A DNA stretch of 64,000 nucleotides from Steroidobacter sp. (GTDB taxonomy: Bacteria; Pseudomonadota; Gammaproteobacteria; Steroidobacterales; Steroidobacteraceae), in the NCBI GenBank assembly GCA_025929585.1, contig JAICPY010000001.1, forward strand, positions 29,802 through 93,801. The letters run 5' to 3'. Below the pieces are notes generated by a model. It was not told the DNA's origin. It made no database searches and saw only the letters and a list, made by a program, of their open reading frames with translations. A program made the translations under genes and the position numbers. Below, one piece after another: positions 4,059 through 34,601 of this stretch. How positions within the stretch are numbered: the stretch's first letter is position 1; each line of letters begins with the position of its first letter.

Positions 4059-4158
4059 GTGATGGAAGTGATGGAGGTGATGAAGGCCAGAATAGAGCGT
4101 CGATGCCACTTACCTACATCACCTACATCACTTCCATCACCTTCGTCACCTTCATCAC
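4059..4158. repeat. Inverted 9-mer tandem array, GTGATGGAA type
   Basis: Three units at 4059-4085; five complementary-type units at 4114-4158. Confidence 0.9.
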
Positions 4159-4163
4159 TGTCG

Positions 4164-4589
4164 TCACGTTACTTCCAACACCGCCATTGTGATCCGGGAA
4201 ATGCACACGAGGCGTTCCTGCTCATCGACGATGCGGATCTCCCAAACGTGGCTGCGCTTACCGATGTGAATCGGACGTGCCGTGCCGATCACGAATCCCT
4301 TTGCGATCGCACGCACGTGATTAGCGTTGATCTCTTGCCCAACCGCGCGATACTTACTCGGATCGATAACCAAGCCTGCCGCTACGCTGCCCAGAGTCTC
4401 TGCAAGCGCCACCGATGCGCCGCCATGCAAGATGCCGAACGGCTGACGCGTTCGTTCATCCACCGGCATGCGACCTTTCAAGTAGCCATCACCGAGCTCG
4501 ATGAACTCGATACCTAATTGACTCGCTAGCGTCTGACAGCGAAAGTGAATTTGGTCCAGAGAGTAGGGGTGGAACCAGAGCTGAGTCAT
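4164..4589 (-). CDS. Hotdog-fold thioesterase (PaaI/MenI-YdiI-like)
   Basis: Motif QPFGILHGGASVALAET, then EINANHVR; 141 aa. Confidence 0.92.
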   Translation of the reverse strand: MTQLWFHPYSLDQIHFRCQTLASQLGIEFIELGDGYLKGRMPVDERTRQPFGILHGGASVALAETLGSVAAGLVIDPSKYRAVGQEINANHVRAIAKGFVIGTARPIHIGKRSHVWEIRIVDEQERLVCISRITMAVLEVT

Positions 4590-4590: not shown

Positions 4591-4713
4591 GTGACGGGTG
4601 ACCGGTGACGAGTGACGAGTGACGAGCAAGATGGTGAGCTGGACTATTCAGATCTTACTAGTACGTGATGATTCTGGTATTCACATGCTTGCTCGTCACT
4701 CGTCACCCGTCAC
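4591..4713. repeat. Inverted 7-mer tandem array, GTGACGA type
   Basis: Five units at 4591-4625; three (T/C)CGTCAC units at 4693-4713 containing the argH stop. Confidence 0.92.
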
Positions 4714-5899
4714 TCTCCTTCTTTAATGCTTTCCCCACCCGTCGATACGCATCCCGGAACGGAATGCCTTCCTTCACGACCATTTCGTTCGCTTGGGCGG
4801 CGGCGTGGATCGAGGGATCGAGTTTGATTCGGTCGGTGCGGAATTTCACGCCTTCGAGCGCCGCGGGCAGAATATTCAGAGTGTCTAAGCACAAATCGAT
4901 GCTGCGGAAGAGCGGGGCTTTGATCAGTTGAAGATCGCGCTGATAGCCCGAAGGGAGTTTCGCGGTGATGGCCATGACTTCAAACAAGCACGCCTGTGCA
5001 GTGGCGGTGCGGCCCCGGATCAGCTCGAATACATCCGGATTACGCTTCTGCGGCATGATCGATGAGCCGGTCGTGAAGGCATCCGGCAAGCTCACGAACG
5101 AGAATTCTTGCGTGTAGAACAAAAGCAGGTCCGAGGAGAGGCGACCGACGTCCTGCATGACGAGCGCGATTTCGAAACCGAGTTGCGCCTCTGCCTTGCC
5201 TCGCGAAAGCTGTACGGCAGTCAGCGGCTCGTGAACCGAATCGAAACCCAATCGACGGCGAGTCTCTTCACGATCGATCGGCAAATTCGGCGAGCCGTAG
5301 CCCGCTGCAGAGCCGAGCGGACTTTTGCCGACGCGGCGCTGCACTTGCTTGAGACCTTCCGCATCATCGCGCAGCTCCGCGGCGAAACCGCCCGCCCACA
5401 GAGCAACCGAGCTCGGCATTGCCTGCTGCATGTGAGTGTAGCCAGGAATGGCTATGGCGCCATCGCGGCTTGCGAGATCATCCAGTGCTGCGGCAACGGT
5501 GAGCACCCGCTCGGCCAACGCGTCCACTGCATCGCGCAGGTACAAGCGCACCGCGGTGAGCACCTGATCATTACGCGAGCGTCCCAAGTGCACCCGTTTG
5601 CCTGCATCACCGATCCGCGCGGTGAGTAGTGTCTCCAGTGCGGTCTGGCCGTCTTCGTGCTGCAACGAAACGTGCCATTCACCGCGGCTGTGCTCTTCGG
5701 CGATCTGCGTCAGTCCACGCCGAATCGCTTCCAGGTCTTCGCTCGACAACAGGCCATTCGCATTCAGCATTTCGGCGTGCGCGATCGACGCTCGCACGTC
5801 ATACGCAACCAAACGATTGTCGAGGCCGTGATCTTCACCGGCCGTATAGCGCAGCACTCGCTCGTCGAGCGGCGCACCTTTGTCCCAAAGACGACTCAT
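4703..5899 (-). CDS. argH: Argininosuccinate lyase (short, 398 aa)
   Basis: RLWDKG N-terminus, GRSRNDQV, GYTHMQQA, fumarate-lyase signature GSSIMPQKRNPD; last gene of the arg operon. Confidence 0.96.
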   Translation of the reverse strand: MSRLWDKGAPLDERVLRYTAGEDHGLDNRLVAYDVRASIAHAEMLNANGLLSSEDLEAIRRGLTQIAEEHSRGEWHVSLQHEDGQTALETLLTARIGDAGKRVHLGRSRNDQVLTAVRLYLRDAVDALAERVLTVAAALDDLASRDGAIAIPGYTHMQQAMPSSVALWAGGFAAELRDDAEGLKQVQRRVGKSPLGSAAGYGSPNLPIDREETRRRLGFDSVHEPLTAVQLSRGKAEAQLGFEIALVMQDVGRLSSDLLLFYTQEFSFVSLPDAFTTGSSIMPQKRNPDVFELIRGRTATAQACLFEVMAITAKLPSGYQRDLQLIKAPLFRSIDLCLDTLNILPAALEGVKFRTDRIKLDPSIHAAAQANEMVVKEGIPFRDAYRRVGKALKKESDG

Positions 5900-5908
5900 A
5901 GGAATGAA

Positions 5909-6054
5909 GCGGTTAGCGGTTAGCGGTTAGCGGTTGGTTTAGACGCGGAGTACGAGCCGGCTTACCGCGGGCAAAGCGACGTGCACCTGGGGCAACGCTG
6001 TGTATCTCGAAGCATGACGCATTCATTCTGTTCTCCGAACTAACCGCTAACCGT
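5909..6054. repeat. Inverted 7-mer tandem array, GCGGTTA type
   Basis: Four units at 5909-5936; two TAACCG(C/T) units at 6041-6054. Confidence 0.9.
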
Positions 6055-6065
6055 TTCCCTCTTAT

Positions 6066-6992
6066 TTATACCGCTTGTTGCTCCGCTGCGCTCAGCACGC
6101 TGACGTTCTCGACGACCAGCGTGCCGGTGCCTTCGTTGGTGAACACTTCGGCGAGGATGCTGTCGTGTGATTTGTAGGAGATCACATGCACGCGCCGCAC
6201 ACCGCCGCGGATCGCTTCTTCGATGGCTTTGGCTTTTGGCAGCATGCCATCTTTCAGGCTGCCTTGCGCTTTGAGTCTTTGAAGGCCGGCCAAATCGGTG
6301 TACGAGATAATCGAGCGCGTATCTTCCACGGACTCGAGAATGCCGGGTGCGCCGGTGCACAGCATCAGCTTCTCTGCTTTCAGCGCCGCACCGATGCCGG
6401 CTGCAACGGTATCTGCATTGATGTTGAGCAACGTGCCTTTGTCGTCGGCCGAGACGGGGCTCACCACCGGCATGAGGCCGTCATCGAGCAATTGCGACAG
6501 AACCTTTGCATCGATCAAATCTATGTCGCCGACCAAGCCGTAGTCCACGACTTCACCTTCGACATTGACCGGAGGACGCTTGTGCGCGCGCACGAGTCCC
6601 GCGTCCACGCCGCTCACGCCGACCGCCGCGATATCGAGCTCCCGGCAAATGCCGAGGATTTGCGTGTTCACGAGGCCGTTGAGCACCATGCTGGTGACTT
6701 CCATCGACTTCTCATCGGTGACACGACGGCCCGCGACGACTCGGGGCGTGATCCCTAAGGATTCTTGGATCTTAGTGAGCTGAGGACCCCCGCCGTGTAC
6801 GAGTACGACGCGAATGCCAACTTGGTGAAGGATCGCGACTTGCTCGATCAGCGCGCGTGTCGAGGCAAGATCGCCGAACACGCCGCCGCTCGCCTTGATG
6901 ACGAACACCTTGCCTTTGTACATGCGGATGTACGGTGCGGCACTGCGTAGTGCGCGAACGGCAACGGAAGGATCGGTGCGAAGCAAAGACAT
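6066..6992 (-). CDS. argB: N-acylglutamate kinase (no C-terminal acetyltransferase domain)
   Basis: LVHGGGPQ, GRRVTD, LLNINADTVA, GMLPK motifs. Start set to MSLLRT at 6992; the upstream in-frame extension is repeat-derived. Confidence 0.95.
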   Translation of the reverse strand: MSLLRTDPSVAVRALRSAAPYIRMYKGKVFVIKASGGVFGDLASTRALIEQVAILHQVGIRVVLVHGGGPQLTKIQESLGITPRVVAGRRVTDEKSMEVTSMVLNGLVNTQILGICRELDIAAVGVSGVDAGLVRAHKRPPVNVEGEVVDYGLVGDIDLIDAKVLSQLLDDGLMPVVSPVSADDKGTLLNINADTVAAGIGAALKAEKLMLCTGAPGILESVEDTRSIISYTDLAGLQRLKAQGSLKDGMLPKAKAIEEAIRGGVRRVHVISYKSHDSILAEVFTNEGTGTLVVENVSVLSAAEQQAV

Positions 6993-7014
6993 TTCGTAAT
7001 CTCGCTGAAGGTGG

Positions 7015-7146
7015 GTTGAGGGTTGACGGTTGACAGTTGGCGGCCAGAAGCACAGTGAGTGAATTGAGTGTTGGCGGTTAGGAGTTGGCAAATAACGAGC
7101 AGAGTCCGATCTTTTTTCCTGCCGTCAACTGTCAACCGTCAACCTC
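7015..7146. repeat. Inverted 7-mer tandem array, GTTGAC(A/G) type
   Basis: Units at 7015-7042; three (C/T)GTCAAC units at 7123-7143 containing the argF' stop. Confidence 0.9.
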
Positions 7147-8137
7147 GCAACAAGCGGTACAGCACTGCCATCTGCACGACCATTCGATTGAATGCCTCGC
7201 GGATGACGACGCTGCGCGGTCCATCCAATACTTCGTCGGCGACGGCGACATTACGGCGCACCGGTAGGCAATGCATGAAGTGACATTTGCGATCCGCGTT
7301 CTTGAACCAAGTGTCCTTTACACACCAGTCGCTCAGGTATTCGCGCAGGCGTGCATCCGCTTCGTTGTCGCCGTAATGCTGAGGTGAACCCCATTCTTTC
7401 GCATACAACACATGAGCGCCATCTAGTGCTTCAGTGCGATCTGTCGTTTCCCGAACCGAGCCGCCGGAGGCACGTGCCGCTTGATGCGCCTTCTCCATGA
7501 CTTGTTCAGGCAACGCAAATCCATCGGGCCGTAGCACGACGACTTCCATGCCGCGCATCGCGGCCATATGCACGGTCGCGGAGGGAACAGCCAGCGGTAG
7601 CGCGCGTGGGTGATTCGCCCAGCTCAAGACAAACTTGCCTCGGTCCGGCACGCGCAATTCATCCATGGTGTGCCAATCGGCGAGCGCTTGGCAGGGATGG
7701 TTGACGGCGGATTCCATGTTCACGAGCGGCTTGTCACACAGGTCTGCCATCATTCGAAATCCGGTTTCCGCCAGATCGGTCGCCAGATTGCGACCTTCGG
7801 CGAACATGCGAATGCCGAGTGCATCGCAGTAAGAAGCAAGCACCGGCACAGCTTCGCGTACATGTTCCGCGGCCGCGCCATTCATGATCGCCCCCGAGCG
7901 CGTTTCCATCTGCCACGTTCCTTGCCCTGGCGTGATCACGACCGCCGTACCGCCCAAGCGCATCATCGCGCTCTGAAATGAAGCGAGTGTTCTGAGCGAA
8001 GGGTTCAAGAACAATAAACCCAACACTTTCCCCGCCAACGCCTGCGGCTGCGGATGCTGCTGCAAGCGCGCAGCCAACCCCAGCAGGTCCTTGACGTTTT
8101 CACGCGGAAAATCGGCGAGATCTAGGAAGCGGTTCAT
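7139..8137 (-). CDS. argF: N-acylornithine carbamoyltransferase, ArgF' family (predicted succinyl-specific, see findings)
   Basis: SLRT carbamoyl-phosphate motif (AOTC/SOTC type, not STRT), HPCQALAD, HPRALP, FMHCLPVRR. Start at 8137. Confidence 0.93.
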   Translation of the reverse strand: MNRFLDLADFPRENVKDLLGLAARLQQHPQPQALAGKVLGLLFLNPSLRTLASFQSAMMRLGGTAVVITPGQGTWQMETRSGAIMNGAAAEHVREAVPVLASYCDALGIRMFAEGRNLATDLAETGFRMMADLCDKPLVNMESAVNHPCQALADWHTMDELRVPDRGKFVLSWANHPRALPLAVPSATVHMAAMRGMEVVVLRPDGFALPEQVMEKAHQAARASGGSVRETTDRTEALDGAHVLYAKEWGSPQHYGDNEADARLREYLSDWCVKDTWFKNADRKCHFMHCLPVRRNVAVADEVLDGPRSVVIREAFNRMVVQMAVLYRLLRG

Positions 8138-8143
8138 AAGTTG

Positions 8144-8284
8144 GTGACGAGTGACAAGTGACGGGTGACGGGCAAGAGGTATATGACGACGACTGGCCGC
8201 CATCCCGGATCGATACGTTGATGCAGCAAGGTTCTCACTGAGGCCATCTCCGTAATTTCTTTCCCGTCACTCGTCACTCGTCAC
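8144..8284. repeat. Inverted 7-mer tandem array, GTGACGA type
   Basis: Four units at 8144-8171; three complementary units at 8264-8284 containing the argD stop. Confidence 0.92.
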
Positions 8285-9453
8285 TTCGGGATGCGCACTA
8301 GCGCATCCCGAAGCTGATCCACATGCTCCCGCTCCAGCACGAAGGGCGCGAGGATTCGCAGCACGTTCGGATCGGCGCTGGTGCCGGTGAGAATGCCTTG
8401 GCGTAGCAGCTCGGCCTGGATGTCTTTCGCTGGGCGTGTCGTGCGAAGTCCGAGCAAGAAACCCGCACCTTGCGTTGCGACCACGGGGCCGACCACACAG
8501 CTCTGGCGAATTTCGTTCGAACGCTGACGAACGTTCTCGAGCAGGTTCTCCGATTCGATGATATCGATCACGGCTTCGACGATCGCACAAGCCATGGGGC
8601 CGCCGCCGAACGTCGTACCGAGGGAATCCATCTTGAGGTACGGCGCGATCATGTCCGAGACCAGCATTGCGGAAACCGGGAATCCCGCACCGAGCGCTTT
8701 CGCCGTCGTGAGGATGTCTGGTGTTACGCCGTACATGTTCGCTGCGAATGGATAGCCAGTCCGGCCGACACCGGATTGGACTTCATCGAAAATAAGTATC
8801 GAGCCGTTTTCTGAGCAACGGAATCGCAGCGCTTCGAGGAATGCCTTCGGCAGGTCGACTGCGCCAGCAACACCTTGCACGGGCTCGACGATGACTGCTG
8901 CGGTCTGATCGTCGATCAGCGTCGCGAGCTTGTCGATGTCGCTTGGCTTGATGAAGGCAACATCGAACGGCTTCTTGGGAAAGCCATACCATTTCTTCTC
9001 CGCGCCCCAGGTGACGGCTCCCGCGGCTGCGGTGCGTCCATGGAAACTTCCCTCGACCGCGAGCACCTTAGTACCGCCCGTCATCTTGCACGCGAGCTTC
9101 AGAGCGTTCTCGTTCGCTTCCGCACCAGAGTTCACGAAAAAAATCGTGTCCAAGCCCAGCCCGCAGAATTGTGCGAGCTTCGTGGCGGCACGACGCCGAA
9201 CGTCCATCGGCACTGCATTGCTTTGAAAACAAAGCGAGGTTGCTTGCTTGGTGAGTGCCTCAACCCAGCGCGGATGGCCATAGCCCAGCGCGGCAACCGC
9301 ATGCCCGCCGTAGAGATCGAGCACGCGACGGCCACCAGGCGTATGCAGGTAGACACCTTGCGCATCCACGACTTCCAGCGGAAATTGCGCAAACACAGGT
9401 GCGAGATGATCGGGTAGCGCGCGATTGATCGATGTCACGTTATCTGGGGTCAT
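8281..9453 (-). CDS. argD: N-acylornithine aminotransferase (class III PLP)
   Basis: DLYGGHAV, NSGAEANENALK, FHGRT, FDEVQSGVGRTG, AKALGAG (PLP lysine). Confidence 0.95.
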   Translation of the reverse strand: MTPDNVTSINRALPDHLAPVFAQFPLEVVDAQGVYLHTPGGRRVLDLYGGHAVAALGYGHPRWVEALTKQATSLCFQSNAVPMDVRRRAATKLAQFCGLGLDTIFFVNSGAEANENALKLACKMTGGTKVLAVEGSFHGRTAAAGAVTWGAEKKWYGFPKKPFDVAFIKPSDIDKLATLIDDQTAAVIVEPVQGVAGAVDLPKAFLEALRFRCSENGSILIFDEVQSGVGRTGYPFAANMYGVTPDILTTAKALGAGFPVSAMLVSDMIAPYLKMDSLGTTFGGGPMACAIVEAVIDIIESENLLENVRQRSNEIRQSCVVGPVVATQGAGFLLGLRTTRPAKDIQAELLRQGILTGTSADPNVLRILAPFVLEREHVDQLRDALVRIPK

Positions 9454-9463
9454 TGCTGCGGGT

Positions 9464-9600
9464 GAGAGTTAGGGGGTAATGATTAGGGGGTAGGGGGTAG
9501 TAAGAAGCTAGGTCGATGGTTTTACGGGTTAGGCATTAGCAGCAGCAGTTGCCTACTCTTAATTCTGACTATCCCCTACCCCTAATCATTACTCCCTCTC
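9464..9600. repeat. Inverted array, GGGGTAG type
   Basis: GTAATGATTAGGGG in the left arm pairs perfectly with CCCCTAATCATTAC in the right arm; TCTGAC at 9564. Confidence 0.85.
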
Positions 9601-9601
9601 C

Positions 9602-10672
9602 TCACGTCCATCCTGCCGCAGGTGCGCTGAGGCCGGTTGTTTCTCCGAAACCGTAGGCACGATTCAACCATTGCAACGCGCCGCCGGCTGCGCCTTTTAC
9701 TAGATTATCAACCACGCAGACGACCGCGAGCGACTTGCCTGATGCGGCGCCGCTAATAAAGGAGTAGTTGCTTCCCGCAACATCTTTTACGTGCGGCATC
9801 GAGCTCGTCACTCGGATAAACGGTTTGTTCCGATAGAACTCGCTCAATCCCTCGAGCAGTTCCGCTGTCTTGATAGATTTCTTCGCGTACGCCTGCACCG
9901 TTACATGAATGCCGCGCGCGAAAGGACCGGAATGGGGCACGAAGTTGAACTCCGCCTCCACATCCGCAGCGATGCGAGTCAGGGCAACGATTTCCGGCGT
10001 GTGCCGATGCGAAAGCGGGTTATACGCGTACAGATCGCTATGGCGCTGCGGATGATGGGTGCCAGCAGAAGGTGTTCGGCCTGAACCTGTGCTTCCAGTG
10101 ATGCCCGATACGAATAGTCGTGGCTCGGCATAACCGAGCTTCAGGATCGGCACGCTGGCCAGCAAGACGGCGGTTGCGAAACAGCCTGGATGCGCCACGT
10201 GTTGCGTCTCGAGCGTGTCGAGATGCTCGGGCACGGCACAAGAGAACTGGCCGATTCGCGCCGGCGCGCCATGGCTGTGTTTGTACACGGCTTCATACTC
10301 ACCGGCGGTCGGATACCGATAGTCAGCAGAGATGTCGAACGCTCGAACACGCGTTCCCTTCTGCTCGGCTGCCTTCAGTAACCCATCGATCAACTGCGCT
10401 GCAACCCCGTGAGGAGCCGCGGACACGATTGCGGATTCCGGCAGTTCGCCGACGAGCTTGGTGATCTCTTCAAGACTGGAGAACGTGAGCTGCGGATAGA
10501 TCGGAGCAAGATGGCTAAAGGATTTTGCAACCGCCTCGCCCGGCTGGCTATCCGAGAGCACGGCTTTGAGCTCCAGTCGAGGATGACCTGCGATCAAGCG
10601 CAGCAACTCGCCGGCAACATAGCCGGTGCCGCCCAGAACGATGATTGGGAGTTTGTGAGGTTGGATATTCAT
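9602..10672 (-). CDS. argC: N-acyl-gamma-glutamyl-phosphate reductase
   Basis: GGTGYVAGEL Rossmann motif, HPGCFATA catalytic Cys, DNLVKGAAG. Start at 10672. Confidence 0.96.
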   Translation of the reverse strand: MNIQPHKLPIIVLGGTGYVAGELLRLIAGHPRLELKAVLSDSQPGEAVAKSFSHLAPIYPQLTFSSLEEITKLVGELPESAIVSAAPHGVAAQLIDGLLKAAEQKGTRVRAFDISADYRYPTAGEYEAVYKHSHGAPARIGQFSCAVPEHLDTLETQHVAHPGCFATAVLLASVPILKLGYAEPRLFVSGITGSTGSGRTPSAGTHHPQRHSDLYAYNPLSHRHTPEIVALTRIAADVEAEFNFVPHSGPFARGIHVTVQAYAKKSIKTAELLEGLSEFYRNKPFIRVTSSMPHVKDVAGSNYSFISGAASGKSLAVVCVVDNLVKGAAGGALQWLNRAYGFGETTGLSAPAAGWT

Positions 10673-10784
10673 GCTTGATGCTGGGCTCAACTGGCGTGCG
10701 ACGTCCGGCGTGCGTGTATGGGTAAGAAAACAGCAGGACAGGCTGCTTGCCTGTCCCACGCTAGCCGCAAGCCACGGAAAATCG

Positions 10785-11864
10785 TCATTCGACCGCGTCC
10801 ACGGCGAGCTTCGCGCTCAGCCCGATCGACTCGATCACACGGTCGGCAAGCGCAGCGCCGTCGGTGATTGCGTTGAAGGCCGGCACGCCGAACTGATCAC
10901 GAATGATATTCACGCCGACCGCATTGTCCGTCGCAGGTCCGGTCACCACCGAAGGTTCGATGCCGAACTTCTCGCGTAACAGCTTGACTCCGCCCCAAGC
11001 GGCGACTGGATCGTTCGCGGACAGGACGACTGAAGTCAATGCGGTGCGAATGTCGGGAGAAGAAAGAATCGCTTCCACCCCATAGGCTCCGAGGATTCCA
11101 TCGCCCAACTCGAACACGATGACATCGGGTTCGCCTTGTGACATCTCGCTGAGCAACGCGCGCGTAATCGCCGCGCCGTTCTTCGCAGTCGTCGTGACGA
11201 CACCGAGGTCCGTGAAGATCATGCTGCGTCGCGCGCCGGCATCTTCCATCGCGAGAATGTCACGTCGCAGCGAAACGCCGGTTGCCTTGAACGCATGCAC
11301 GTTCAAGCCGCGATGACGCATCCGGGAGACGATTGCGCACGCGGCCGCGGTCTTGCCGGCTTCCATGCAAGTGCCCGCCAACGCTACGACCGGTACACCT
11401 CTGGTGTTCAGCGTCGCGTTGAAGTCCAACCGCTGATAACCGACGCGGGCAGGAACCCCGATGCGTTCGCCGAGATAGGGAAACTGCAACACGACACCAA
11501 TGACGCGTGCGTCGAAAGGACGGCCTTTTTCCGGGTTCACCGAATCGACGATCCCGAGCACCCCGCCGATGTTGAGGACTTGAATGATGTCGCCTTCCTT
11601 CACCGACTCGGGAAGGTGACCCGAATAGCCGAAGAGCGCCTGACGATGTCCCAATGCGCCGACGATGATGTCTCCTTTGGACACTTTCGCCATCCGCCCG
11701 CTGGTCAGCTCGAGTGTGTTGTACGTGGACTTGTTGTTTAGAACCTCGGCAACGAGCACCACGCCCTCTTCGCACGGAATATCCGTGGTGGCGACGCGTA
11801 ATTCTCGGCTCAGGTTCAACGCCTGAGTGATGGACGCGACTTTGTCGACAACGACGGTTTTCAT
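10785..11864 (-). CDS. DUF1611-family P-loop-like protein (DgcN N-acyltransferase-related), function unassigned
   Basis: 359 aa from MKTVVVDK, motif AGTCMEAGKT, FKATG, ELGDGILG; sits between argG and argC. Family assignment by motif recognition. Confidence 0.75.
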   Translation of the reverse strand: MKTVVVDKVASITQALNLSRELRVATTDIPCEEGVVLVAEVLNNKSTYNTLELTSGRMAKVSKGDIIVGALGHRQALFGYSGHLPESVKEGDIIQVLNIGGVLGIVDSVNPEKGRPFDARVIGVVLQFPYLGERIGVPARVGYQRLDFNATLNTRGVPVVALAGTCMEAGKTAAACAIVSRMRHRGLNVHAFKATGVSLRRDILAMEDAGARRSMIFTDLGVVTTTAKNGAAITRALLSEMSQGEPDVIVFELGDGILGAYGVEAILSSPDIRTALTSVVLSANDPVAAWGGVKLLREKFGIEPSVVTGPATDNAVGVNIIRDQFGVPAFNAITDGAALADRVIESIGLSAKLAVDAVE

Positions 11865-11872
11865 GATGGCGA

Positions 11873-11908
11873 GTGATGAACGTGATGCAAGTGATGAAGG
11901 TGATGGCG
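11873..11908. repeat. Single-arm 9-mer array GTGATG-NNN
   Basis: Four units between the argG stop and the DUF1611 start. Confidence 0.85.
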
Positions 11909-11917
11909 GAAAGGCAC

Positions 11918-13138
11918 TTAGTTCTTTCCTGCGCGTGTCCAGAACATGCTGGGCAAGCTGACCATCTTGGAAAAGCCGAGCGCATCGGCGGCGGTCCATT
12001 CTCCGGCCGCTTCGCCGTAAACGCCTTTGGATGCAGCCATGATCGAGAAAGGCGAGGTGACCCCTTCGACGAACGCATTGCCTGGCCGGTAGAGCACCTT
12101 CACTTCTCCGGTAACGCGCGATTGCGAAGCGACAAACAGCGCCTCGATGTCACGGCACACTGGATCCAAGTGCTGACCTTCATGAACGAGATCGCCGTAA
12201 GGACCTGCGAGCATCTCCTTGATTCGCTGCTGCCGGCCCGTCATGACGAGCTTTTCCAATTCACGGTGAGCGTTGATCAGCACCTCCGCCGCTGGTGCCT
12301 CGAAGGCGACGCGGCCTTTCGTGCCGATGATCGTATCGCCCAAGTGAATTCCGCGGCCGACGCCGAATTTTGCACCGATCGCTTCGATCTGCTCGATCAG
12401 CGTCACCGTATCGAGCTTCGTTCCATCCAAACTGACGGGCACGCCGTCCTGAAACCCGATAGTGTGCGACTCGGGCGCTTGCGGCTTGGTGAATGCATCT
12501 TTGGACAGTACCCACGCGTGTTCGGGAATGCTGCCATCGGAGGTCAGCGTTTCCTTTCCACCGATCGTCACGCCCCACAGTCCTCGATTTACTGAATATG
12601 CGGCGCCATACGGCGGAATCGGCAGCTTGCGCTCTTCCAGATAGTTGAGCTGCTCGGGTCGCTTGAATGCTCTGTCGCGCACCGGCGCAAGAATCGTGAG
12701 CTCGGGCGCGAGTGTCCGAAGCGCAACCTCGAATCGCACTTGGTCGTTGCCGGCCGCGGTGCAGCCATGTGCGACGACCTTTGTGCCAATCTTGCGCGCG
12801 TATTCCGCGATCGTCTGGGCTTGCATGACCCGTTCGGCACCCACGCACAAAGGATACATCTGACCGCGTTTGACGTTACCGATGATGAGGTACTTGATGA
12901 CCTGATCGAAGTACGCCTTTCGTGCGTCGATCTGCACATGATCCTTCGCGCCCAGCTCGCGTGCGCGCTGTGCCAATACGCGCGTAGCTTCTTCATCGAT
13001 ACCGCCGGTGTCGACTGTCACAGTGATGATGGGCCGGCCGTAATTCGCACTTAGCCATGGAACGAGGAACGAGGTATCGAGCCCGCCCGAAAAGGCCAAG
13101 AGAATGGGTTCGTTGCCGGCGGGAAGTTGGTCGGTCAT
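11918..13138 (-). CDS. argG: Argininosuccinate synthase
   Basis: AFSGGLDTS, AHGCTAAGNDQVRFE, GIKG-like IIGTKGRVAFEAPAA. Confidence 0.97.
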   Translation of the reverse strand: MTDQLPAGNEPILLAFSGGLDTSFLVPWLSANYGRPIITVTVDTGGIDEEATRVLAQRARELGAKDHVQIDARKAYFDQVIKYLIIGNVKRGQMYPLCVGAERVMQAQTIAEYARKIGTKVVAHGCTAAGNDQVRFEVALRTLAPELTILAPVRDRAFKRPEQLNYLEERKLPIPPYGAAYSVNRGLWGVTIGGKETLTSDGSIPEHAWVLSKDAFTKPQAPESHTIGFQDGVPVSLDGTKLDTVTLIEQIEAIGAKFGVGRGIHLGDTIIGTKGRVAFEAPAAEVLINAHRELEKLVMTGRQQRIKEMLAGPYGDLVHEGQHLDPVCRDIEALFVASQSRVTGEVKVLYRPGNAFVEGVTSPFSIMAASKGVYGEAAGEWTAADALGFSKMVSLPSMFWTRAGKN

Positions 13139-13151
13139 TTGTAGGATAGAA

Positions 13152-13256
13152 GCGGTTAGCGGTTAGCGGTTAGCGGATAGTCGGAAGACGGAGCGGAAGA
13201 CGTGCGAGGCGGCGCGTTCTTTCCGAACCCATCCGCCATCCGCTATCGGCTATCCG
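13152..13256. repeat. Inverted 7-mer array, GCGGTTA/GCGGATA type
   Basis: Four units at 13152-13179 then GTCGGA; four C(C/T)ATC(C/G)G units at 13229-13256 containing the argR stop. Confidence 0.88.
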
Positions 13257-13729
13257 TTTCTCGGTTCCGTCTCCAGTTTGGGGAAGACTTCGCGCAAGCG
13301 AGCCGTGAGCTTGCGTTGTTCGCGACCGTCCTCGGTCGCGATGAAAATGGTGTCGTCACCCGAGATCGTGCCGACGACCTCCGGCCAATTCGATCGATCG
13401 ATGGCGACCGCCACGCTCTGCGCCGTGCCGGTGGTCGTCTTGACGACGGTCAACGACGGCCCGGCCGTGCGCACTGCCACGACGAAGTTCGCAATCGCCG
13501 CGAAATGATGGGTCGCCAACGCATCTTCGCTAGCGGGGACGATGTAGTGGTCACCCGCTTTTGCGACACCTAATTCGCGCAGGTCGCGGCTGACGCTGGA
13601 CTGCGTGGCATCGAACCCGTGCTTGTGCAGCACCTTCACCAACTCGTCCTGATTGCGCACGGTCGATTCGCGAAGGATTCGCAAGATCGCTGCCCGGCGC
13701 GAGACTGATTGGTGAATTTCGGCGGCCAT
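13250..13729 (-). CDS. argR: Arginine repressor
   Basis: NQDELV, ATQSSVSRDLREL winged HTH, VVGTISGDDTIF arginine-binding motif. Start at 13729. Confidence 0.97.
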   Translation of the reverse strand: MAAEIHQSVSRRAAILRILRESTVRNQDELVKVLHKHGFDATQSSVSRDLRELGVAKAGDHYIVPASEDALATHHFAAIANFVVAVRTAGPSLTVVKTTTGTAQSVAVAIDRSNWPEVVGTISGDDTIFIATEDGREQRKLTARLREVFPKLETEPRNG

Positions 13730-13778: not shown

Positions 13779-13817
13779 ATTGCATAAAAACGCGCGTATG
13801 GTGCATAAATATGCAAA
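13779..13817 (-). promoter_or_regulatory. Tandem ARG boxes (ArgR operator) upstream of the arg operon
   Basis: TGCATAAAAACGCG at 13781 and the palindrome TGCATAAATATGCA at 13802 are 21 bp apart, matching the 18+3 bp ARG-box pair geometry. Confidence 0.85.
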
Positions 13818-15891: not shown

Positions 15892-18800
15892 TCATCGCTC
15901 AATCATATATTCCAAATCCGCACTCTGCGCTTCGCCGGATTCGGTTCGAAGGATCCAGCGATCGCTGATCGTGTAGCGCAGCTTCAAAGTATTGATGGAT
16001 TCCGTCAAAGAAATGCCATAGCTGATGAACAGGCGTGGCGAAAGGAATTTGCCTAATACCAGCGAGGGGTTCGCTTCACCCGCGCTGTTGATGTAGTTCT
16101 CGACGCCCACTTCTTCGAGGCCGAGCCTTCTGCCGAGTTGAGACGCAAGAAATCCGCCGCCTTGCAGCGCTAGCGTGTCGCTCGCGGCGGTCATGTTTTC
16201 GCTATCGGCGGCCGCGGTTGCGTTCAGCGGCTTTCCGATCAGCAAATAAGAGACGATCTGTGTCTGGGGCATCGATGGATCGGAGAAGAACGTGAGCCGA
16301 GGCGCTTGCAGCGTGCCGCGGACGTTCAAGCCCACGGTCACAGTCTCAACACGCCGACGCGCTTCGATGTCTAGGCCCGGGTCATCCAGAGGCGCGTTAT
16401 CGAAGATCAGCTGCCCGCGGTTGATCTCGAGCTCCTGACCGTATGCCTCGTACCGGCCTTCGGCAACGCGCAATTCGCCGTGCCCTGTCGTCACCTCGCC
16501 GGTGCGTACGTTCGTCGTCACGGCGCCTTCGATTCTGCCGTGCAATCCGAACGCGTCGACTCGTACATCCTCGCCCATGTGCACGCGGACCTCGCTGTGC
16601 ACTTTCAGCCTTCCTTCTTGTTCGGCTGCGTGTTCGCCGACATAGCGCGCATCGTTTGAAGGACCCACCGCGCCGCTGAGCTTGGCAGGCTGTACCAAGG
16701 CGCTGGGAATAGTCACATCGCCCTGCACGCGTACTTGGGTCGCATCGATTTCGAATTGCAGATCGGGCGATGCGACGATTCGATATTCAGGCAGATCCGC
16801 GACCAGCAGATCGGTGCCTCGCAATTGCATCCTGCCGCGCGGCTCGGCGTTGTTCCATCTGAGGTCTCCGGTTACCTCCAGACGGCCTTCACCGGCATTG
16901 CCGTTGCCCCGAAACTCCAGACGGTTGCTCGCGATCTCGGCGATGAGATCCAAATCGCGCAACGCAAAGTTCGCGCGATAAGAATCGAGCTCGCCATTCG
17001 CAAGCTCGATGCGCCCGTCGATCTCGGGTTGCGACAGAGTGCCGCCGATGTTCGCGGATCCACTGAGCACGCCCGCCGCATGGTCCACCTCGGGGAATAG
17101 GAGCGGTAGAAGATTGGCATCGGCTGCGCGAGCTCGGATTTCACCGCGTAACGGTAGGCGCAGTACGTTCGCTTCTCCACTACGAGTTAGCTGCGCGTTC
17201 GTATGTAGATAAGTATCTGTGAACGCCTGCACGCCGAACGAGAAGTCGATTTGCTCAGGCTTTGCGACCAGATGCATACCTCCGGTGCCCAAATTCAAGG
17301 TCTCCGGTTCGGAGCCTTGCGGTCGATAGATAATCGCGGCATCGCTGATCTTCATACCCGCTTCGCCTTGCCACACAGCGGAATCTGAACCGAAGAAACG
17401 CGCGCTGCCTTCGATGCGACCTGCGTACTCGACGTCCTCCTCGCTCTCGGGCAGCACGGTCGCAAGTGGAATCTCGTATCCGGATACTTCAGCTTCCCAA
17501 CTGCCATCGCGCTGCCATCGACCCTCGGCACACAGGCGTCCCGCTGCGATGACTAGGCAGAAGTTGTCGAGCATCGCCCGTTCGCGAGAGAGCGTGGCAC
17601 TCGCAGGCTCGGCAATCTTCACTTCTTGTGGCGGATTACCGCGTGAGAACTGAGTCGTCGCGATGCTTGCCGTCCAGACTTCCTCTTCGAGCTTGCCCGA
17701 GACTTCCAGACGCGCACGCGGCGCCGCGCTCGCATCTTCCGACATCCCCACGACGTTCACTCCGATGCGATGATCAAGAGCAGTGCCGTGCCCGCTGGCA
17801 TCCACGCTCTCTGCCAAGCGTGCTCCGTAACCTGCACGTCGGGCGGATACCGTGAGCCGCGAAGGTTGAGCATTAGAGGAATCGACATCGCCTTCGATAG
17901 CGAGAGATTGCGCGGACCACTCGCGATACGACAGACGTTCACCCGCTAAATGGGCCGTGACGCGCGGAGTATCGCGCTTGCCTTGGGCGCTGCCGGAGAA
18001 ATCGATCGAGCCGCTCGCATTCGGAATCAGCTTATCCAGCGCAGGCGTATTGAGCGACCAGGTCAACTCGATCGTGTCATGCAGCTTCGCATCGAGCGCC
18101 AAGCGCGCCGCTCCCCACTCGAGCTCGGCATCGCGCACTTGCCAGCGGCGCGCTGAACGCTCGATCTCTCCGGAGCCGCGCACGGTTTGTTCGCGCAGCG
18201 TGCCGTGCAAATTGTGGGCGGCCACGCGGAAATCCGCGTTCTTATCGATTCCTTTGCCTGCGCCGATTGCATTGAACGTAATACGGCCTGGGAGCGAAGC
18301 GTGCAGTTCGACAGGATTGATCTGCTTCGCGTTGGCGGTGAGGCTCCAGATCCTCGGTTGCTCGAACTCTATGCGGCCGCTGCCCGCGATCGAGCCCTCG
18401 AGCGTGTTCAAGTCGTACGAGTGCAGAACAACGTCTTCTTTGCTAAGGACGCCTTGCGCGACACCGACTGCATTCGGAATATCGGGGCCATCGATCTGCG
18501 CATTCATATCGAAGGTATAAGGCAGTGTGCCTCGGAGCGTCGCCTGTCCGACACGACTATAGATGACTGCGTCTTGCCGCAATGGCCATTGCAGATCGGT
18601 CCAGCGAGTCGCCAACTCGAGGTTCGGCGGACCGCCTGCAAAGGTCAATGTGCCATTGGCGTGCACACGGCTCGGGGATCCAGGCACTGTGAACTCGCTG
18701 TCCTGCACGTACAGCACTCGGTCCGAAAACCGGCCCCTTGCATCGATGCCGATTTGGGAGAGGTTGTATTCCGGTATTGTGAAGTTGCCGCGAGCGTGAA

Positions 18801-19644
18801 TCTGTTCGCGCGTTACTTCGACATCCAAAGCGATGTTGCGGAACGAAAACGGTGGCTGCTCGAGCCAGGGTTCAAGTGCAAACGTCGGTGAAGAGAGCTT
18901 GCCTACGATTCGCCAGCCTTGAAGGTCACGCGTGAACAAACCCTCTGCGCTAATCGGGCTGGGCTCGCGAATATCGGCAGAGATCGTCATTCGTTCGATG
19001 TCCCCGCCCAATTTTGCCCCCAGCGTGACCATCAAATCGGGCTGCAGCAACACGCTGCCTTCGGTGTTCAGCTCGATCTTCAGCGGACGTGCCGCAACCA
19101 GCGTGAGGTTTCCACCGGCATCGAAGCGGTCCGCATCGACGTTGAACCCGTTCACCCGCAATCGATGATGCGAAATGTTGATGGCACCTTCGATGCGATG
19201 CGCCTCGATCGTGCGTCCATCCAGATGCTCATAGCGCACTCGATCCAACTGAGCGTTCGCAATGGCGATACGCAAGAAAGAGGGAAGAAACCGAGGAGGG
19301 CGATCGGGTGGCGGCATGTCGGCATCGCGCACTTGGACTTCCACATTGCTTGCTGAAAACGATCTAGCGGAGAGCGTCTGTACCAGCAGAGCTCGCAGCT
19401 TCGGCTCGATGCGGATGTCGTGTGCGACAACGTGCACGCGCGGGTGGTTGAGCTCGAAGCGTTCGACGAAGACGTGTTCGGAGAATTGACCTGAGAGCCC
19501 CTCGATGAGGATTCCCGATTTCTCGAACCGATAAAGCTGACCCGCAACGAGCGAGACTCCGAGTGGCGTGTAAATGAACACCGCCAGTATCGCCACCGGC
19601 ACGAGCAGTATCAGCGCGACGATGACGAGGAGGCTTTTACGCAT
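15892..19644 (-). CDS. tamB: Translocation and assembly module TamB
   Basis: 1250 aa, N-terminal membrane anchor, beta-taco repeats, C-terminal DUF490-like end (LGKFLSPRLFISYG); TAATG overlap with tamA. Confidence 0.9.
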   Translation of the reverse strand: MRKSLLVIVALILLVPVAILAVFIYTPLGVSLVAGQLYRFEKSGILIEGLSGQFSEHVFVERFELNHPRVHVVAHDIRIEPKLRALLVQTLSARSFSASNVEVQVRDADMPPPDRPPRFLPSFLRIAIANAQLDRVRYEHLDGRTIEAHRIEGAINISHHRLRVNGFNVDADRFDAGGNLTLVAARPLKIELNTEGSVLLQPDLMVTLGAKLGGDIERMTISADIREPSPISAEGLFTRDLQGWRIVGKLSSPTFALEPWLEQPPFSFRNIALDVEVTREQIHARGNFTIPEYNLSQIGIDARGRFSDRVLYVQDSEFTVPGSPSRVHANGTLTFAGGPPNLELATRWTDLQWPLRQDAVIYSRVGQATLRGTLPYTFDMNAQIDGPDIPNAVGVAQGVLSKEDVVLHSYDLNTLEGSIAGSGRIEFEQPRIWSLTANAKQINPVELHASLPGRITFNAIGAGKGIDKNADFRVAAHNLHGTLREQTVRGSGEIERSARRWQVRDAELEWGAARLALDAKLHDTIELTWSLNTPALDKLIPNASGSIDFSGSAQGKRDTPRVTAHLAGERLSYREWSAQSLAIEGDVDSSNAQPSRLTVSARRAGYGARLAESVDASGHGTALDHRIGVNVVGMSEDASAAPRARLEVSGKLEEEVWTASIATTQFSRGNPPQEVKIAEPASATLSRERAMLDNFCLVIAAGRLCAEGRWQRDGSWEAEVSGYEIPLATVLPESEEDVEYAGRIEGSARFFGSDSAVWQGEAGMKISDAAIIYRPQGSEPETLNLGTGGMHLVAKPEQIDFSFGVQAFTDTYLHTNAQLTRSGEANVLRLPLRGEIRARAADANLLPLLFPEVDHAAGVLSGSANIGGTLSQPEIDGRIELANGELDSYRANFALRDLDLIAEIASNRLEFRGNGNAGEGRLEVTGDLRWNNAEPRGRMQLRGTDLLVADLPEYRIVASPDLQFEIDATQVRVQGDVTIPSALVQPAKLSGAVGPSNDARYVGEHAAEQEGRLKVHSEVRVHMGEDVRVDAFGLHGRIEGAVTTNVRTGEVTTGHGELRVAEGRYEAYGQELEINRGQLIFDNAPLDDPGLDIEARRRVETVTVGLNVRGTLQAPRLTFFSDPSMPQTQIVSYLLIGKPLNATAAADSENMTAASDTLALQGGGFLASQLGRRLGLEEVGVENYINSAGEANPSLVLGKFLSPRLFISYGISLTESINTLKLRYTISDRWILRTESGEAQSADLEYMIER

Positions 19645-21464
19645 TAAAACTGCGTGGATATATACAAGTGAAACCGCGGACTGCGACCCGACTGCGACAG
19701 CGCCTGCGCGACGTCTACACCGAAGCTCGCGACCGCGATGCGGTAGCGCGCACCGATGCCAACGGAGTATTCCAATCCGGGGTCCGAGAAATCATCGAAC
19801 GCGTTGCCGATGTCGTAGAACACCGCAGCGCCGAAGTTGCGGGGCAGGTCACGGACCAACTCCACTGTCCCGGTTGCCAGATGCCGGCCGCCCACCGTCC
19901 TGCGTTGGATCTCGCCTTCGGCGTTTCTTTGCTCGACCACTGGGGACAACTCGTTCAAGCCGAAACCGCGAACGCTACGCTCGCCGCCTGCGAAGAATCG
20001 CTGCGATGCTGGCAATTCCGAGAAATCGGCCACTCGGCTCGCACCTAGCTCGGTGCGAAGGTGCAGATGCCAGCGCTCTGCGAAGTCGAATACTCTCTCG
20101 CCTTGAATGCGTAGCTGCAAGAACGACGCGTCGGATCCCAGAGTGCTTGGCGAGCCGCGCAACTCCGCATAGAAGTACCAAGGTCGAATGCGATCCCCGA
20201 CGATATAGCTGGGCAGGGTGGAATAACTGATTCCGGGGATCAGATAAAAATCTTCTTTCGTAATCGACTCGACGGGTGCGATCCCAGTAACTGGGTCGAG
20301 AGCCGCAGGCTCGGTGGTCGTCTCGTTCGACAACCGCAGGAACAAAACACGCTGCCAACGTCCCATCACCTCGGTCAGCGCGGAACCGATCTCCTGACGT
20401 TCGCTGAAGGTATCGCCGAGCTCTTCGTCCGCGAGCGTCGCCGTGAACTCCAACTTCTCCAACGCAACATCCATTACCGGGATGACGTAACGTCCCGAGA
20501 GTTGTTTGATCACTGAGGATCCGAGCAATTCGACTTTGGCACGATGCCCGTTTTTGTTGACGCGGCGATCGTCCCAAGTGAAGCGTCCGCGGACCTTCGT
20601 GTCGGTGCCGTAGCCCAAACTCGTCGCGAAACGATGGCGCCGATTGGCGCGCGCCGTAACCGTGATCGGTACAGTGCGATTCTCGCGGTCGAGCTCGCCG
20701 CTTTCGATGTCGACGCCTGAGAAGTACAAGCTGTCATCCAAAACGTATTGCGTGCGAAGCAGCGAATCCAATGTGTAGGGATCGCCCGTTTCCATTCGCA
20801 GCATCCGGCGCATCGCCGCATCGTTGATTACATCTTGCGCGATCGTGATCTCGCCGTAGTGATATCGCTCGCCAGTTTGCAGCTCGATCATCGCCGTCGC
20901 ACGCCGCTCGACACGATCGATCAGCAGGTCGCTTCTTGTCAGCTGTGCATCCAGATATCCGGCATTCTTCGCCGCACGCAGCAGCTCGCCTTTGACGCGT
21001 TCGTACGTGCCGTGATTCAAACGAAGCCCCGGCTTGAGAACCTGAGCATCGATGATCTCGTTCAACGCGCGCAGATCCTTGCCCGGACCTTCGATATCGA
21101 TCTGCACTTCGGACAACCGCACCGGTCGGCCCGGCCGCACGTTCACTGTGGCGTGCCAGCCATTGTCACGAGGCGTCACGTCGTAGGTGACTTCCGGTTC
21201 GTAGTAACCCAGAGGCTGCAATGCTTCGCGCACCTCTCCTACGATGCGCCGCTGCAATCGCGACATCGTCTCCGGCGTGACGTCATCGCGCTCCGCGTAA
21301 CGCGTCAAACTCAAATACGCGCGAACATTCGCTTCGAGCTGTGGTGTCAGCCCGGGCACCTCGATTTCGATGCCAGCGCGCGCGACCGAGCAGAGCGCGA
21401 AGGAGATCCAGAGTGCCAGCGAGGTGTGTAGCACAAAACGTCGAGGTCGAATCCGACGCAACAA
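19644..21464 (-). CDS. tamA: TamA, Omp85-family outer-membrane protein
   Basis: POTRA-like N-terminus, FFAGGERSVRGF lid-lock motif, C-terminal Phe. Start uncertain (TTG at 21464 or 21461); the ORF-track extension to 21722 runs through a palindromic element and is unlikely to be coding. Confidence 0.88.
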   Translation of the reverse strand: MLRRIRPRRFVLHTSLALWISFALCSVARAGIEIEVPGLTPQLEANVRAYLSLTRYAERDDVTPETMSRLQRRIVGEVREALQPLGYYEPEVTYDVTPRDNGWHATVNVRPGRPVRLSEVQIDIEGPGKDLRALNEIIDAQVLKPGLRLNHGTYERVKGELLRAAKNAGYLDAQLTRSDLLIDRVERRATAMIELQTGERYHYGEITIAQDVINDAAMRRMLRMETGDPYTLDSLLRTQYVLDDSLYFSGVDIESGELDRENRTVPITVTARANRRHRFATSLGYGTDTKVRGRFTWDDRRVNKNGHRAKVELLGSSVIKQLSGRYVIPVMDVALEKLEFTATLADEELGDTFSERQEIGSALTEVMGRWQRVLFLRLSNETTTEPAALDPVTGIAPVESITKEDFYLIPGISYSTLPSYIVGDRIRPWYFYAELRGSPSTLGSDASFLQLRIQGERVFDFAERWHLHLRTELGASRVADFSELPASQRFFAGGERSVRGFGLNELSPVVEQRNAEGEIQRRTVGGRHLATGTVELVRDLPRNFGAAVFYDIGNAFDDFSDPGLEYSVGIGARYRIAVASFGVDVAQALSQSGRSPRFHLYISTQF

Positions 21465-21652
21465 AGATCTCTCGCAGCGGCGTGGCGGCGCAGCGGATTC
21501 GATAGAAGCTAATGCGGGGTAGCCTCCTTCTTCGCATGTCTCAGTCTTCTTAGTTGACTTCCTATCGTCAAAGACCGTTCTACCAAAAACGCGACGCAGG
21601 CTAACGGAATCACTGTCTCCCGCCGCGCCGCCGCGCCGCTGCGAGAAATCTT
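21464..21652. repeat. 189-bp palindromic element with 33-bp imperfect terminal inverted repeats
   Basis: 21464-21496 versus the reverse complement of 21620-21652 match at 30/33; nested inner stems (GATTC/GAATC, TAGCCT/AGGCTA, TTGAC/GTCAA). Confidence 0.75.
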
Positions 21653-21728
21653 GAGCGCGCTTGGCGAGACCCACCAGGAGTGGATCGCGGTCTGGCGCTG
21701 GTGGGCGAGCCGCGCGCCGCAAGCTGGG

Positions 21729-22577
21729 TTACTCCGGAGAGGAGTCGAACGACGTGTCGGTCGCAACCGTTTCGTCAGGATCCTCGGCCTCGAACCAGAC
21801 TTCCGGTACCTCGGTACTGGTGAACTCAAAGCGCGACGTGCCGGTTTGCACGCCTGCCGAATCGAATCGACGCTCCTGAAGCACGGTGCGTCCATTGCGT
21901 TCGACTAAGAGCACGCCCGAGCAGCGCGTCCCATAGCGTTCGTTCAGAATGAATGGCGCCGAGACGATGCGCTCCCATTCTTCCGGCAATCCGGTCGACG
22001 GCAATTGGTCCACGGGTGCTTGCTCTCGATCGCCAAGCATCGCGAACAACGATTCCGCAGACATCTCGCTTTCGCGCAGTAGGGACTCGAATCGCTCACG
22101 TGTTCGCTTGAGCTTCGGCCAGGGTGTATCCAATTCGTGGTTGCTCAACCCATAGATTCCTGGCGGCAAGTTCCGCGGCACATTCGGGCCGCGATTAGAA
22201 AAATAGTACAAAGCGCGCGACCCACCGACGAGCAAGTTGAAGCCTGAATACCGTGGGGCGGCCCCTCGCAGATCGTCGAGAAATTCCTTCGGCGAAGTCG
22301 CACCGGTCAAGAACCGGGGCACGAGATTGCCGCGCGAAGGGGCACCCTCGACAGGTGCTTGCAGATCTCGGTAGTTCGTAACGATGCCAAATCGTCCCGA
22401 GCGGGCGACGCCCAACCATGTTCCTCCCGCCTTCAAGTCTCGGCCCGCGAGGATGCGCGCATCGTCTTGCCACCAACCCAGGGGCGCGGCGGGACGGTCA
22501 TGGAACTCGTCGCGATTGCCGGCGAGAATCATTCGATAGCGCGGATGGGATTTCCAGGCAAGGACGAGAAGGCACAT
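21729..22577 (-). CDS. NRDE/TANGO2 family protein
   Basis: MCLL N-terminus, NRDE motif (GNRDEF), GGTWLG, YGTRCS. Confidence 0.93.
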   Translation of the reverse strand: MCLLVLAWKSHPRYRMILAGNRDEFHDRPAAPLGWWQDDARILAGRDLKAGGTWLGVARSGRFGIVTNYRDLQAPVEGAPSRGNLVPRFLTGATSPKEFLDDLRGAAPRYSGFNLLVGGSRALYYFSNRGPNVPRNLPPGIYGLSNHELDTPWPKLKRTRERFESLLRESEMSAESLFAMLGDREQAPVDQLPSTGLPEEWERIVSAPFILNERYGTRCSGVLLVERNGRTVLQERRFDSAGVQTGTSRFEFTSTEVPEVWFEAEDPDETVATDTSFDSSPE

Positions 22578-32061: not shown

Positions 32062-32160
32062 TGGGGAAGTGACGAAGTGACGAGGTGACGGGGTGACGAC
32101 GTCAGATAGAGCGCGCACACATTCTGGCTTCGTCACCCCGTCACTTCGTCACCTCGTCAC
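32061..32160. repeat. Inverted 8-mer array, GTGACGAA type
   Basis: Five units then GTCAGA; TCTGGC then four NNCGTCAC units; convergent otsA/mscS junction. Confidence 0.92.
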
Positions 32161-34593: not shown

Positions 34594-34601
34594 ATGCAGA
34601 A

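Follow-up and report, generated by a model that had tools for sequence, protein, structure and literature searches.

A two-domain P-loop protein encoded in the arginine operon of a Steroidobacter sp. as a predicted non-canonical N-acyl (succinyl)-L-glutamate synthase

The stretch of DNA considered here, 64,000 nucleotides of contig JAICPY010000001.1 from a Steroidobacter sp. (the window, within which positions are given), harbours an arginine biosynthesis operon comprising one gene with no classical Arg designation, hereafter X. X is a real gene and, as judged from its sequence and surroundings, probably acts at the first step of the pathway; the more precise reading favoured here, held tentatively as the leading but by no means secure possibility, is that X replaces ArgA and N-acylates L-glutamate, most probably to N-succinyl-L-glutamate. 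Such a first-step role is already known as a published prediction for the same family and is not new.

Eight co-oriented genes of the minus strand span positions 4703-13726, as assigned with Pfam and NCBIfam. They are given below together with the element that precedes them.

13802-13815, no strand assigned: ARG-box-like palindrome TGCATAAATATGCA, just upstream of argR, in the argR promoter region
13250-13726, minus strand: argR, arginine repressor, first gene of the operon (Pfam Arg_repressor and Arg_repressor_C)
11918-13138, minus strand: argG, argininosuccinate synthase (Pfam and NCBIfam)
10785-11864, minus strand: gene X, 359 aa, predicted non-canonical N-acyl (succinyl)-L-glutamate synthase, orthologue of ACG33_RS14135 / A0A127FCT3 of Steroidobacter denitrificans (open reading frame (ORF) and translation)
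9602-10672, minus strand: argC (TIGR01850, 273 bits for a cut-off of 233.6)
8281-9453, minus strand: argD, acetyl/succinylornithine-family transaminase (Pfam and NCBIfam)
7139-8140, minus strand: argF', N-acylornithine carbamoyltransferase (NF003384, 344 bits for a cut-off of 288)
6066-6992, minus strand: argB, stand-alone N-acylglutamate kinase, 308 aa (Pfam AA_kinase only; TIGR00761, 201 bits for a cut-off of 151)
4703-5899, minus strand: argH, argininosuccinate lyase, short with 398 aa from the first ATG (Pfam Lyase_1 and partial ASL_C2)

These assignments bear out the gene order argR-argG-X-argC-argD-argF'-argB-argH given in the original prediction, as well as its description of ArgB as a stand-alone kinase, since AA_kinase is the only domain in this protein and no GNAT or other acetyltransferase domain was found in it by Pfam. 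Likewise, Pfam found no GNAT fusion in ArgH. When all 47 ORFs of 100 aa or more that do not overlap within the 64 kb were scanned with Pfam, none proved to code for GNAT/ArgA, ArgJ, M20/ArgE or AstE-type proteins, which confirms that argA and argJ are absent from the window. A window devoid of ArgA, ArgJ and GNAT proteins, with an ArgB devoid of an N-acetyltransferase domain, is one of the grounds on which a first-step role is proposed for X. As regards ArgH itself, the protein matches ASL_C2, the model of the C-terminal domain, over its first third only, and the tblastn matches to ArgH in related loci have a like span of about 1.18 kb.

The operon had also been described as ArgR-boxed, a claim that retains modest support. 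TGCATAAATATGCA is the sole ARG-box-like palindrome and its placement before argR is compatible with an operator, with weak statistics as 6.3 matches are expected by chance window-wide at up to 3 mismatches, and the other intergenic repeats are heptamer/nonamer tandem arrays rather than ARG boxes. Since such arrays occur all over the window, repeated intergenic motifs were dropped as candidate ArgR operators.

The genomic context of X was followed in 80 Steroidobacteraceae loci, recovered by a single-protein contig scan and all at 75% identity or more, and, for phylogenetic breadth, in contig look-ups of 11 cluster representatives sharing 28-40% identity with X. The full eight-gene order is kept in most of the 80 loci and the operon is retained in about 70 species. 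In six loci (L052, L053, L057, L069, L071 and L076), X-argC-argB stands alone, i.e. X together with the two enzymes working directly on N-acylglutamate. Among the distant homologues, 7 out of 11 lie in arg clusters; the arrangements recorded, including a fusion of X with ArgB, were as follows.

P0226 and P0177 (distant homologues): argG-X-argF'-argH
P0146 (distant homologue): argG-X-argC
P0184 (distant homologue): X-argC-argD
P0216 (distant homologue): X-argC
P0190 (distant homologue): argH-X
P0210 (626 aa), L081 8001-9881, also L082-L084: X-ArgB fusion, with an X domain and an amino-acid-kinase (ArgB) domain

The X-ArgB fusion in P0210 is genuine, being encoded identically on four metagenome contigs with a GC content of 69-70%; it is adjoined by a divergently oriented arginase gene (rocF model, 230 bits for a cut-off of 227.6). 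An apparent X-ArgC fusion of 687 aa (P0169), with a low-complexity, Arg/Ser/Ala-rich junk sequence, was for that reason discounted as the product of a frameshift in gene calling, and shows adjacency only. Altogether, the operon position in the window, the X-ArgB fusion, the X-argC-argB trios and the distant arg-linked homologues argue for a role of X at the first step. In L052, the trio directly follows tamA-tamB (translocation and assembly module), a gene pair that in the window precedes the arg operon by about 2 kb (15892-21722, minus strand); as the trio comes right after tamB there, this is an old neighbourhood, from which other arg genes were lost or into which they were inserted. GNAT genes lie about 2 kb downstream of the trio in the same locus but were not taken as ArgA, as they are FR47-like and RimJ/RimL-like (Acetyltransf_3) and not adjacent.

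The nature of the acyl group is suggested by the carbamoyltransferase of the operon. In an alignment with the acetylornithine carbamoyltransferase of Xanthomonas campestris and its E92 mutants 3L02 and 3L05, Ala91 of ArgF' (codon 7868-7870) falls on E92, and alanine is the very substitution carried by the E92A crystal-structure mutant 3L02. This position is Ala in 61 out of 61 related loci where it is readable, and Ile in L085. In work by Shi et al. (2007), cited in a passage of bioRxiv 10.1101/2024.10.14.618325, the substitutions E92A, E92P, E92S and E92V are described as switching the enzyme to N-succinylornithine specificity. Because the specificity residue is Ala and not Glu, the window ArgF' is probably a succinylornithine carbamoyltransferase, predicted from its sequence to act on N-succinylornithine, and the NF003384 name of N-acetylornithine carbamoyltransferase is likely a systematic mis-annotation for these ArgF'. 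The same residue argues for a succinylated product of X.

A close relative of X has been singled out before. In Appendix 2 of bioRxiv 10.1101/2024.10.14.618325, ACG33_RS14135 (A0A127FCT3) from S. denitrificans DSM 18526 is predicted to be an alternative ArgA, and its GapMind entry reads 'predicted ArgA'; the suspicion that the role of X had perhaps been put forward before, in work on pathway gaps, was thus justified. X and this protein (P0047, i.e. UniRef100_A0A127FCT3) share 86% identity over 99% of X, the same operon position, the same succinyl-type ArgF' residue and the same proposed function, but the species of the window is a different member of the Steroidobacteraceae, and the closest homologues are Povalibacter-like. 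As reported in the preprint (bioRxiv 10.1101/2024.10.14.618325), S. denitrificans grows in minimal medium and its genome encodes no protein similar to characterised ArgA, the whole-genome absence extending to ArgA/ArgJ homologues, and ArgE is lacking as well. In the same source, homologues of ACG33_RS14135 are virtually always found within arg operons, never share a genome with homologues of Pseudomonas aeruginosa ArgA and in some cases adjoin plausible argE genes, and position 92 is A, P, S or V in 90% of 70 neighbouring ArgF'.

The X protein starts with MKTVVVDK, which is the conserved N-terminus of its homologues. With more than 6500 homologues in a set of 5.8 billion proteins, forming 1487 clusters at 50% identity, X qualifies as a conserved gene rather than an ORF arisen by chance; the ORF, the conserved start and the homologue count together uphold the 359-aa protein with a GTCMEAGKT P-loop first read from the DNA. 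The nearest homologues, at 91-95% identity, belong to Povalibacter, Steroidobacter and metagenome-assembled genomes of Steroidobacteraceae. The protein is divided as follows.

11409-11864, minus strand: N-terminal all-beta domain, residues 1 to about 152 (alignments, AlphaFold2 model)
10785-11408, minus strand: C-terminal SIMIBI-class (BioD-like) P-loop domain, residues about 153-359 (Foldseek, PDB profile, hhalign)
11346-11372, minus strand: P-loop GTCMEAGKT, residues 165-173, of the BioD-style GTxxxxGKT form (alignments)

The AlphaFold2 model (pLDDT 95, pTM 0.91) combines the all-beta N-domain with an alpha/beta P-loop domain, and the N-domain modelled separately reaches a pLDDT of 94. In an alignment of 46 diverse family members, with identity down to 28%, the invariant residues are G34, P85, G101, G170, K171, K193, G196, G210, G221, E252, G254, D285 and G309. 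Within the P-loop, T172 is conserved in at least 90% of the sequences beside the invariant G170 and K171, and E252 heads an E252-L-G254-D-G motif. For the N-domain, two alignments give G34, P85, G101, G104 and G123 as invariant and S11, E52, G56, R74 and D92 as nearly so. This domain found no match in Pfam and no significant relative in the PDB by Foldseek (best E=0.69, TM at most 0.26). Against the PDB, Foldseek with the whole protein returned generic SIMIBI proteins, namely SRP54/FtsY, BioD, HypB, ParF and FleN (E 1e-6 to 4.5e-5, TM up to 0.40), and single-sequence phmmer gave no match at E<=10.

The original prediction had placed X in DUF1611/DgcN, and this part of it does not stand as family membership; the label applies at superfamily level only. 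The DUF1611 family (PF07755 and PF17396), to which DgcN belongs, matches X through PF07755 with 18.2 bits where the cut-off is 25, in a stretch of 41 residues (156-196) around the P-loop, and PF17396 (DUF1611_N) has no match in X or in the 46 family members. Besides, the N-domain of DUF1611 is Rossmann-like, unlike the all-beta N-domain of X. Over the 46 members, sub-threshold Pfam matches are shared between CbiA, MobB and DUF1611 (30/46 each) and AAA_26 (11/46), and the weak NCBIfam matches are to MobB, CobB (15/46), BioD (13/46, best E 1.1e-4) and CobQ, all far below cut-offs; in X itself NCBIfam returns MobB only, at 17 bits, the curated models TIGR00347 bioD and CobB/CobQ are not reached by the family, and neither Pfam nor NCBIfam gives a GNAT or ArgJ match in X. 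When the X-family profile is searched against PDB sequences, the dethiobiotin synthetase of Mycobacterium tuberculosis (3fgn) comes first (E 9.6e-5), followed by FtsY/SRP and MobB. The DgcN structure 7XRJ lies outside the Foldseek top 50 and outside the PDB profile-search matches for X, whereas ACG33_RS14135 is reported to match it weakly by Foldseek, with a root-mean-square deviation of 5.6 A and an E of 1.4e-7 (bioRxiv 10.1101/2024.10.14.618325).

As the family models stay below threshold, the structural matches are generic to SIMIBI and the N-domain is without a PDB relative, X is best described, from sequence comparison, as a distinct two-domain family whose common ground with DUF1611/DgcN is limited to one branch, the BioD-like one, of the SIMIBI P-loop superfamily. 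DgcN is reportedly, from work by Yu and co-workers in 2023 (ISME J 17:537), a D-glutamate N-acetyltransferase. DgcN and X are alike in that a C-terminal P-loop domain of SIMIBI type, some 200 aa long, is part of a protein of about 350 aa and in that glutamate is the presumed acyl acceptor; the differences, beyond the sub-threshold PF07755 score and the all-beta N-domain of X, are that DgcN is catabolic and transfers an acetyl group to D-Glu whereas X would be anabolic and use L-Glu with a succinyl group.

With BioD and the N-domains of CobB/CobQ, X shares the BioD-like motif set, i.e. the P-loop GTxxxxGK[ST], the lysine after strand 2 and the acidic residue heading an E-G-x-G-G-type (E-x-G-x-G) motif. 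By hhalign, X and Escherichia coli BioD align with a probability of 66% and an E of 5.6e-5, K171/T172 corresponding to K15/T16, K193 to K37 and E252 to E115, and the HMMER alignment puts the nearly invariant D202 of X on an Asp of M. tuberculosis BioD. X differs from BioD in its extra N-domain of 150 aa, in the weakness of the overall similarity (about 20% identity) and in its predicted substrates. Compared with the canonical N-acylglutamate synthases (ArgA, ArgJ, S-NAGS, ArgO, C-NAGS, NAGS/K and the Bacteroides BT3761 GNAT), X shares the predicted reaction and pathway position, and the X-ArgB fusion has a counterpart in the bifunctional NAGS/K enzymes, but the protein has neither the GNAT nor the ArgJ (DmpA/OAT) fold; judging by its sequence, X would be isofunctional with these synthases without being homologous to them.

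A second clade of the family is found outside arg operons, where the X homologue stands beside genes for RimK-family alpha-L-glutamate ligases in 4 of the 11 sampled contexts, three of them archaeal. These loci carry one or two RimK-family (ATP-grasp) genes each, scoring 150-225 bits with TIGR00768 (cut-off 143).

L086, 7132-10136: RimK-linked X locus
L089, 6984-12316: RimK-linked X locus
L098, 6001-11260: RimK-linked X locus
L095, 267-2378: RimK-linked X locus

Two X paralogues lie back to back in L086, the X homologue of L089 adjoins an N-acyl-amino-acid deacylase of the AstE/AspA/DoeB-like type, and a C39-like peptidase is encoded near the X homologue in both L089 and L098. This gene set resembles that of N-acetylaspartate/N-acetylaspartylglutamate metabolism, with an N-acyltransferase, a RimK-like ligase and an aspartoacylase. 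By this analogy, the second clade would be consistent with N-acylation of acidic amino acids throughout the family, and the RimK-linked systems may make N-acyl-glutamyl compounds.

In the mechanism proposed, X would make N-succinyl-L-glutamate, the stand-alone ArgB would phosphorylate it, and the later steps would fall to ArgC, ArgD and an ArgF' of the succinyl type. The P-loop domain would hold the ADP-3'-phosphate/diphosphate part of succinyl-coenzyme A (succinyl-CoA) through a predicted site including K171/T172, K193, D202, D219 and E252, the N-terminal beta domain, of a kind not described before, would supply the glutamate site (R74, E52 and D92), and the alpha-amino group of glutamate would attack the succinyl-CoA thioester. 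CoA is put forward as the carrier of the donor group because DgcN and the pathway of Bacteroides offer analogies. N-acylation of L-glutamate as the missing step is the best-supported reading of the sequence evidence and agrees with the prediction made for the 86%-identical orthologue, so that this side of the original proposal is maintained and only its attachment to DUF1611/DgcN is given up.

Several points nonetheless weigh against this assignment. The assignment of ACG33_RS14135, with which it agrees, is itself a purely computational prediction. Two clusters, L085 and L100, have X placed as argG-X-argF', where it adjoins neither argB nor argC. The link with DgcN, the one P-loop protein for which Glu N-acyltransferase activity is known to have been demonstrated, is remote in respect of Pfam score, structural ranking and N-domain alike, and the retention of the whole BioD Mg-ATP catalytic set would suit a CoA binder no better, and perhaps less well, than an ATP-dependent enzyme. 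Finally, because S. denitrificans is also without ArgE, the logic of gap filling alone cannot pick which gap X fills.

The Mg-ATP set leads to the most serious alternative, in which X would be a BioD/CobB/CobQ-type amide ligase that depends on ATP, joining succinate (or another acid) and glutamate to give N-succinyl-glutamate, ADP and Pi via an acyl phosphate and without any acyl-CoA. BioD is indeed the best sequence-profile match of X among solved structures, the P-loop and the residues matched to BioD (K193, E252, D202) are invariant or at least 90% conserved in the 46 sequences, and the weak matches to CobB, CobQ and BioD all concern ATP-dependent activators of carboxylates or carbamates. 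Against this, the Bacteroides succinyl pathway is assumed to be succinyl-CoA-dependent and the RimK-adjoining clade is already partnered by an ATP-dependent ligase. Moreover, DUF1611/DgcN is reported to use acetyl-CoA despite similar motifs, so that motif conservation does not discriminate between the two chemistries. On balance, ATP-dependent ligation is a possibility to be kept in mind at a low, yet appreciable, likelihood. A broader proposal, of similarly low likelihood, would have X found its own enzyme class, with a hitherto undescribed beta-domain joined to a BioD-like P-loop domain, acting either by ATP-dependent ligation of free succinate via an acyl phosphate or by recycling the succinyl group of N-succinylcitrulline, a reaction that would fill both gaps, ArgA and ArgE, together; in that case, N-acyl-glutamyl peptides would be the product of like chemistry in the RimK-linked relatives from archaea.

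Recycling also enters into an unlikely reading in which X would serve the other missing step, or both, as an N-succinylcitrulline deacylase substituting for ArgE or as an ArgJ-like succinyl transacylase from N-succinylcitrulline to glutamate. The joint lack of ArgA and ArgE in S. denitrificans, the absence of M20 and AstE deacylases from the window and the late-step module argG-X-argF'-argH of L085 and L100 are in its favour, and a recycling transferase would be compatible with both that module and the early-step X-argC-argB trio. On the other hand, a domain of the P-loop NTPase type would hardly be expected to support amide hydrolysis or a transacylation independent of ATP, plausible argE genes stand beside some X homologues according to the preprint, and the X-ArgB fusion and the X-argC-argB trios favour the first step. 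Still more improbable is X as a nucleotide-binding regulator or assembly factor for arginine enzymes, e.g. acting on ArgB, with the real N-acylglutamate synthase encoded unrecognised elsewhere in the genome: SIMIBI proteins such as MobB, HypB, MeaB and SRP/FtsY are often accessory NTPases, such proteins figure among the structural and hidden Markov model matches, and a fusion to ArgB would suit a regulator too, but this explanation leaves the ArgA gap in a prototroph, the genomes never shared by X and ArgA homologues (preprint) are what an isofunctional replacement would produce, and the BioD-type substrate lysine K193 and the conserved pocket residues of the N-domain look enzymatic.

Concerning the surroundings of the operon, a gene downstream of argH on the same strand (4164-4589, minus strand) codes for an EntH/MenI/PaaI-type hot-dog (4HBT) thioesterase. 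A homologue follows argH in 23 related loci, with a gap of only about 12 bp in some of them (e.g. L005). The thioesterase was left out of the pathway model, as it stands after argH in those 23 loci only and resembles EntH/MenI-type enzymes.

The tandem arrays mentioned above, made of short units of 7-9 bp, occur in many of the spacers between genes, and within the arg operon in most of them. Their units include GTGACGA, AGCGGTT, GGTTGAC and AGGCGAT/CCTATCC, with CCGTCAC repeated 9.4 times, and the arrays usually come in inverted pairs 40-110 bp apart, which could form long hairpins. They resemble the STRR heptamer repeats of cyanobacteria.

Tandem arrays: 967-1046, 4059-4167, 4591-4715, 5898-6065, 7014-7144, 8143-8285, 9471-9597
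Tandem arrays: 11872-11918, 13142-13181, 32066-32162, 34601-34696, 41933-42158, 54300-54477, 55270-55396

Elsewhere in the window, the ORF scan brought out the following genes.

21729-22577, minus strand: bacterial TANGO2-family protein
23712-24362, minus strand: FlhC-like protein, with no FlhD neighbour found by Pfam
62761-63333, minus strand: protein with a C-terminal domain of the type VI secretion system (T6SS) immunity protein Tdi1

Because the same prediction is already in the preprint and in GapMind, the discovery value of the first-step assignment is limited. What goes beyond the preprint is the X-ArgB fusion, the X-argC-argB trios, the BioD motif set with BioD as the nearest solved relative, the N-domain and the second clade. 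Should the assignment be right, X would be a non-homologous replacement of N-acetylglutamate synthase built on a P-loop scaffold instead of the GNAT or ArgJ fold, and the annotation gap in the arginine pathway would be closed for Steroidobacteraceae as well as for other lineages. Automatic names would have to be corrected accordingly, be it 'hypothetical' or 'DUF1611' for X or 'N-acetylornithine carbamoyltransferase' for ArgF', and the succinylated route to arginine would reach beyond the Bacteroidota.

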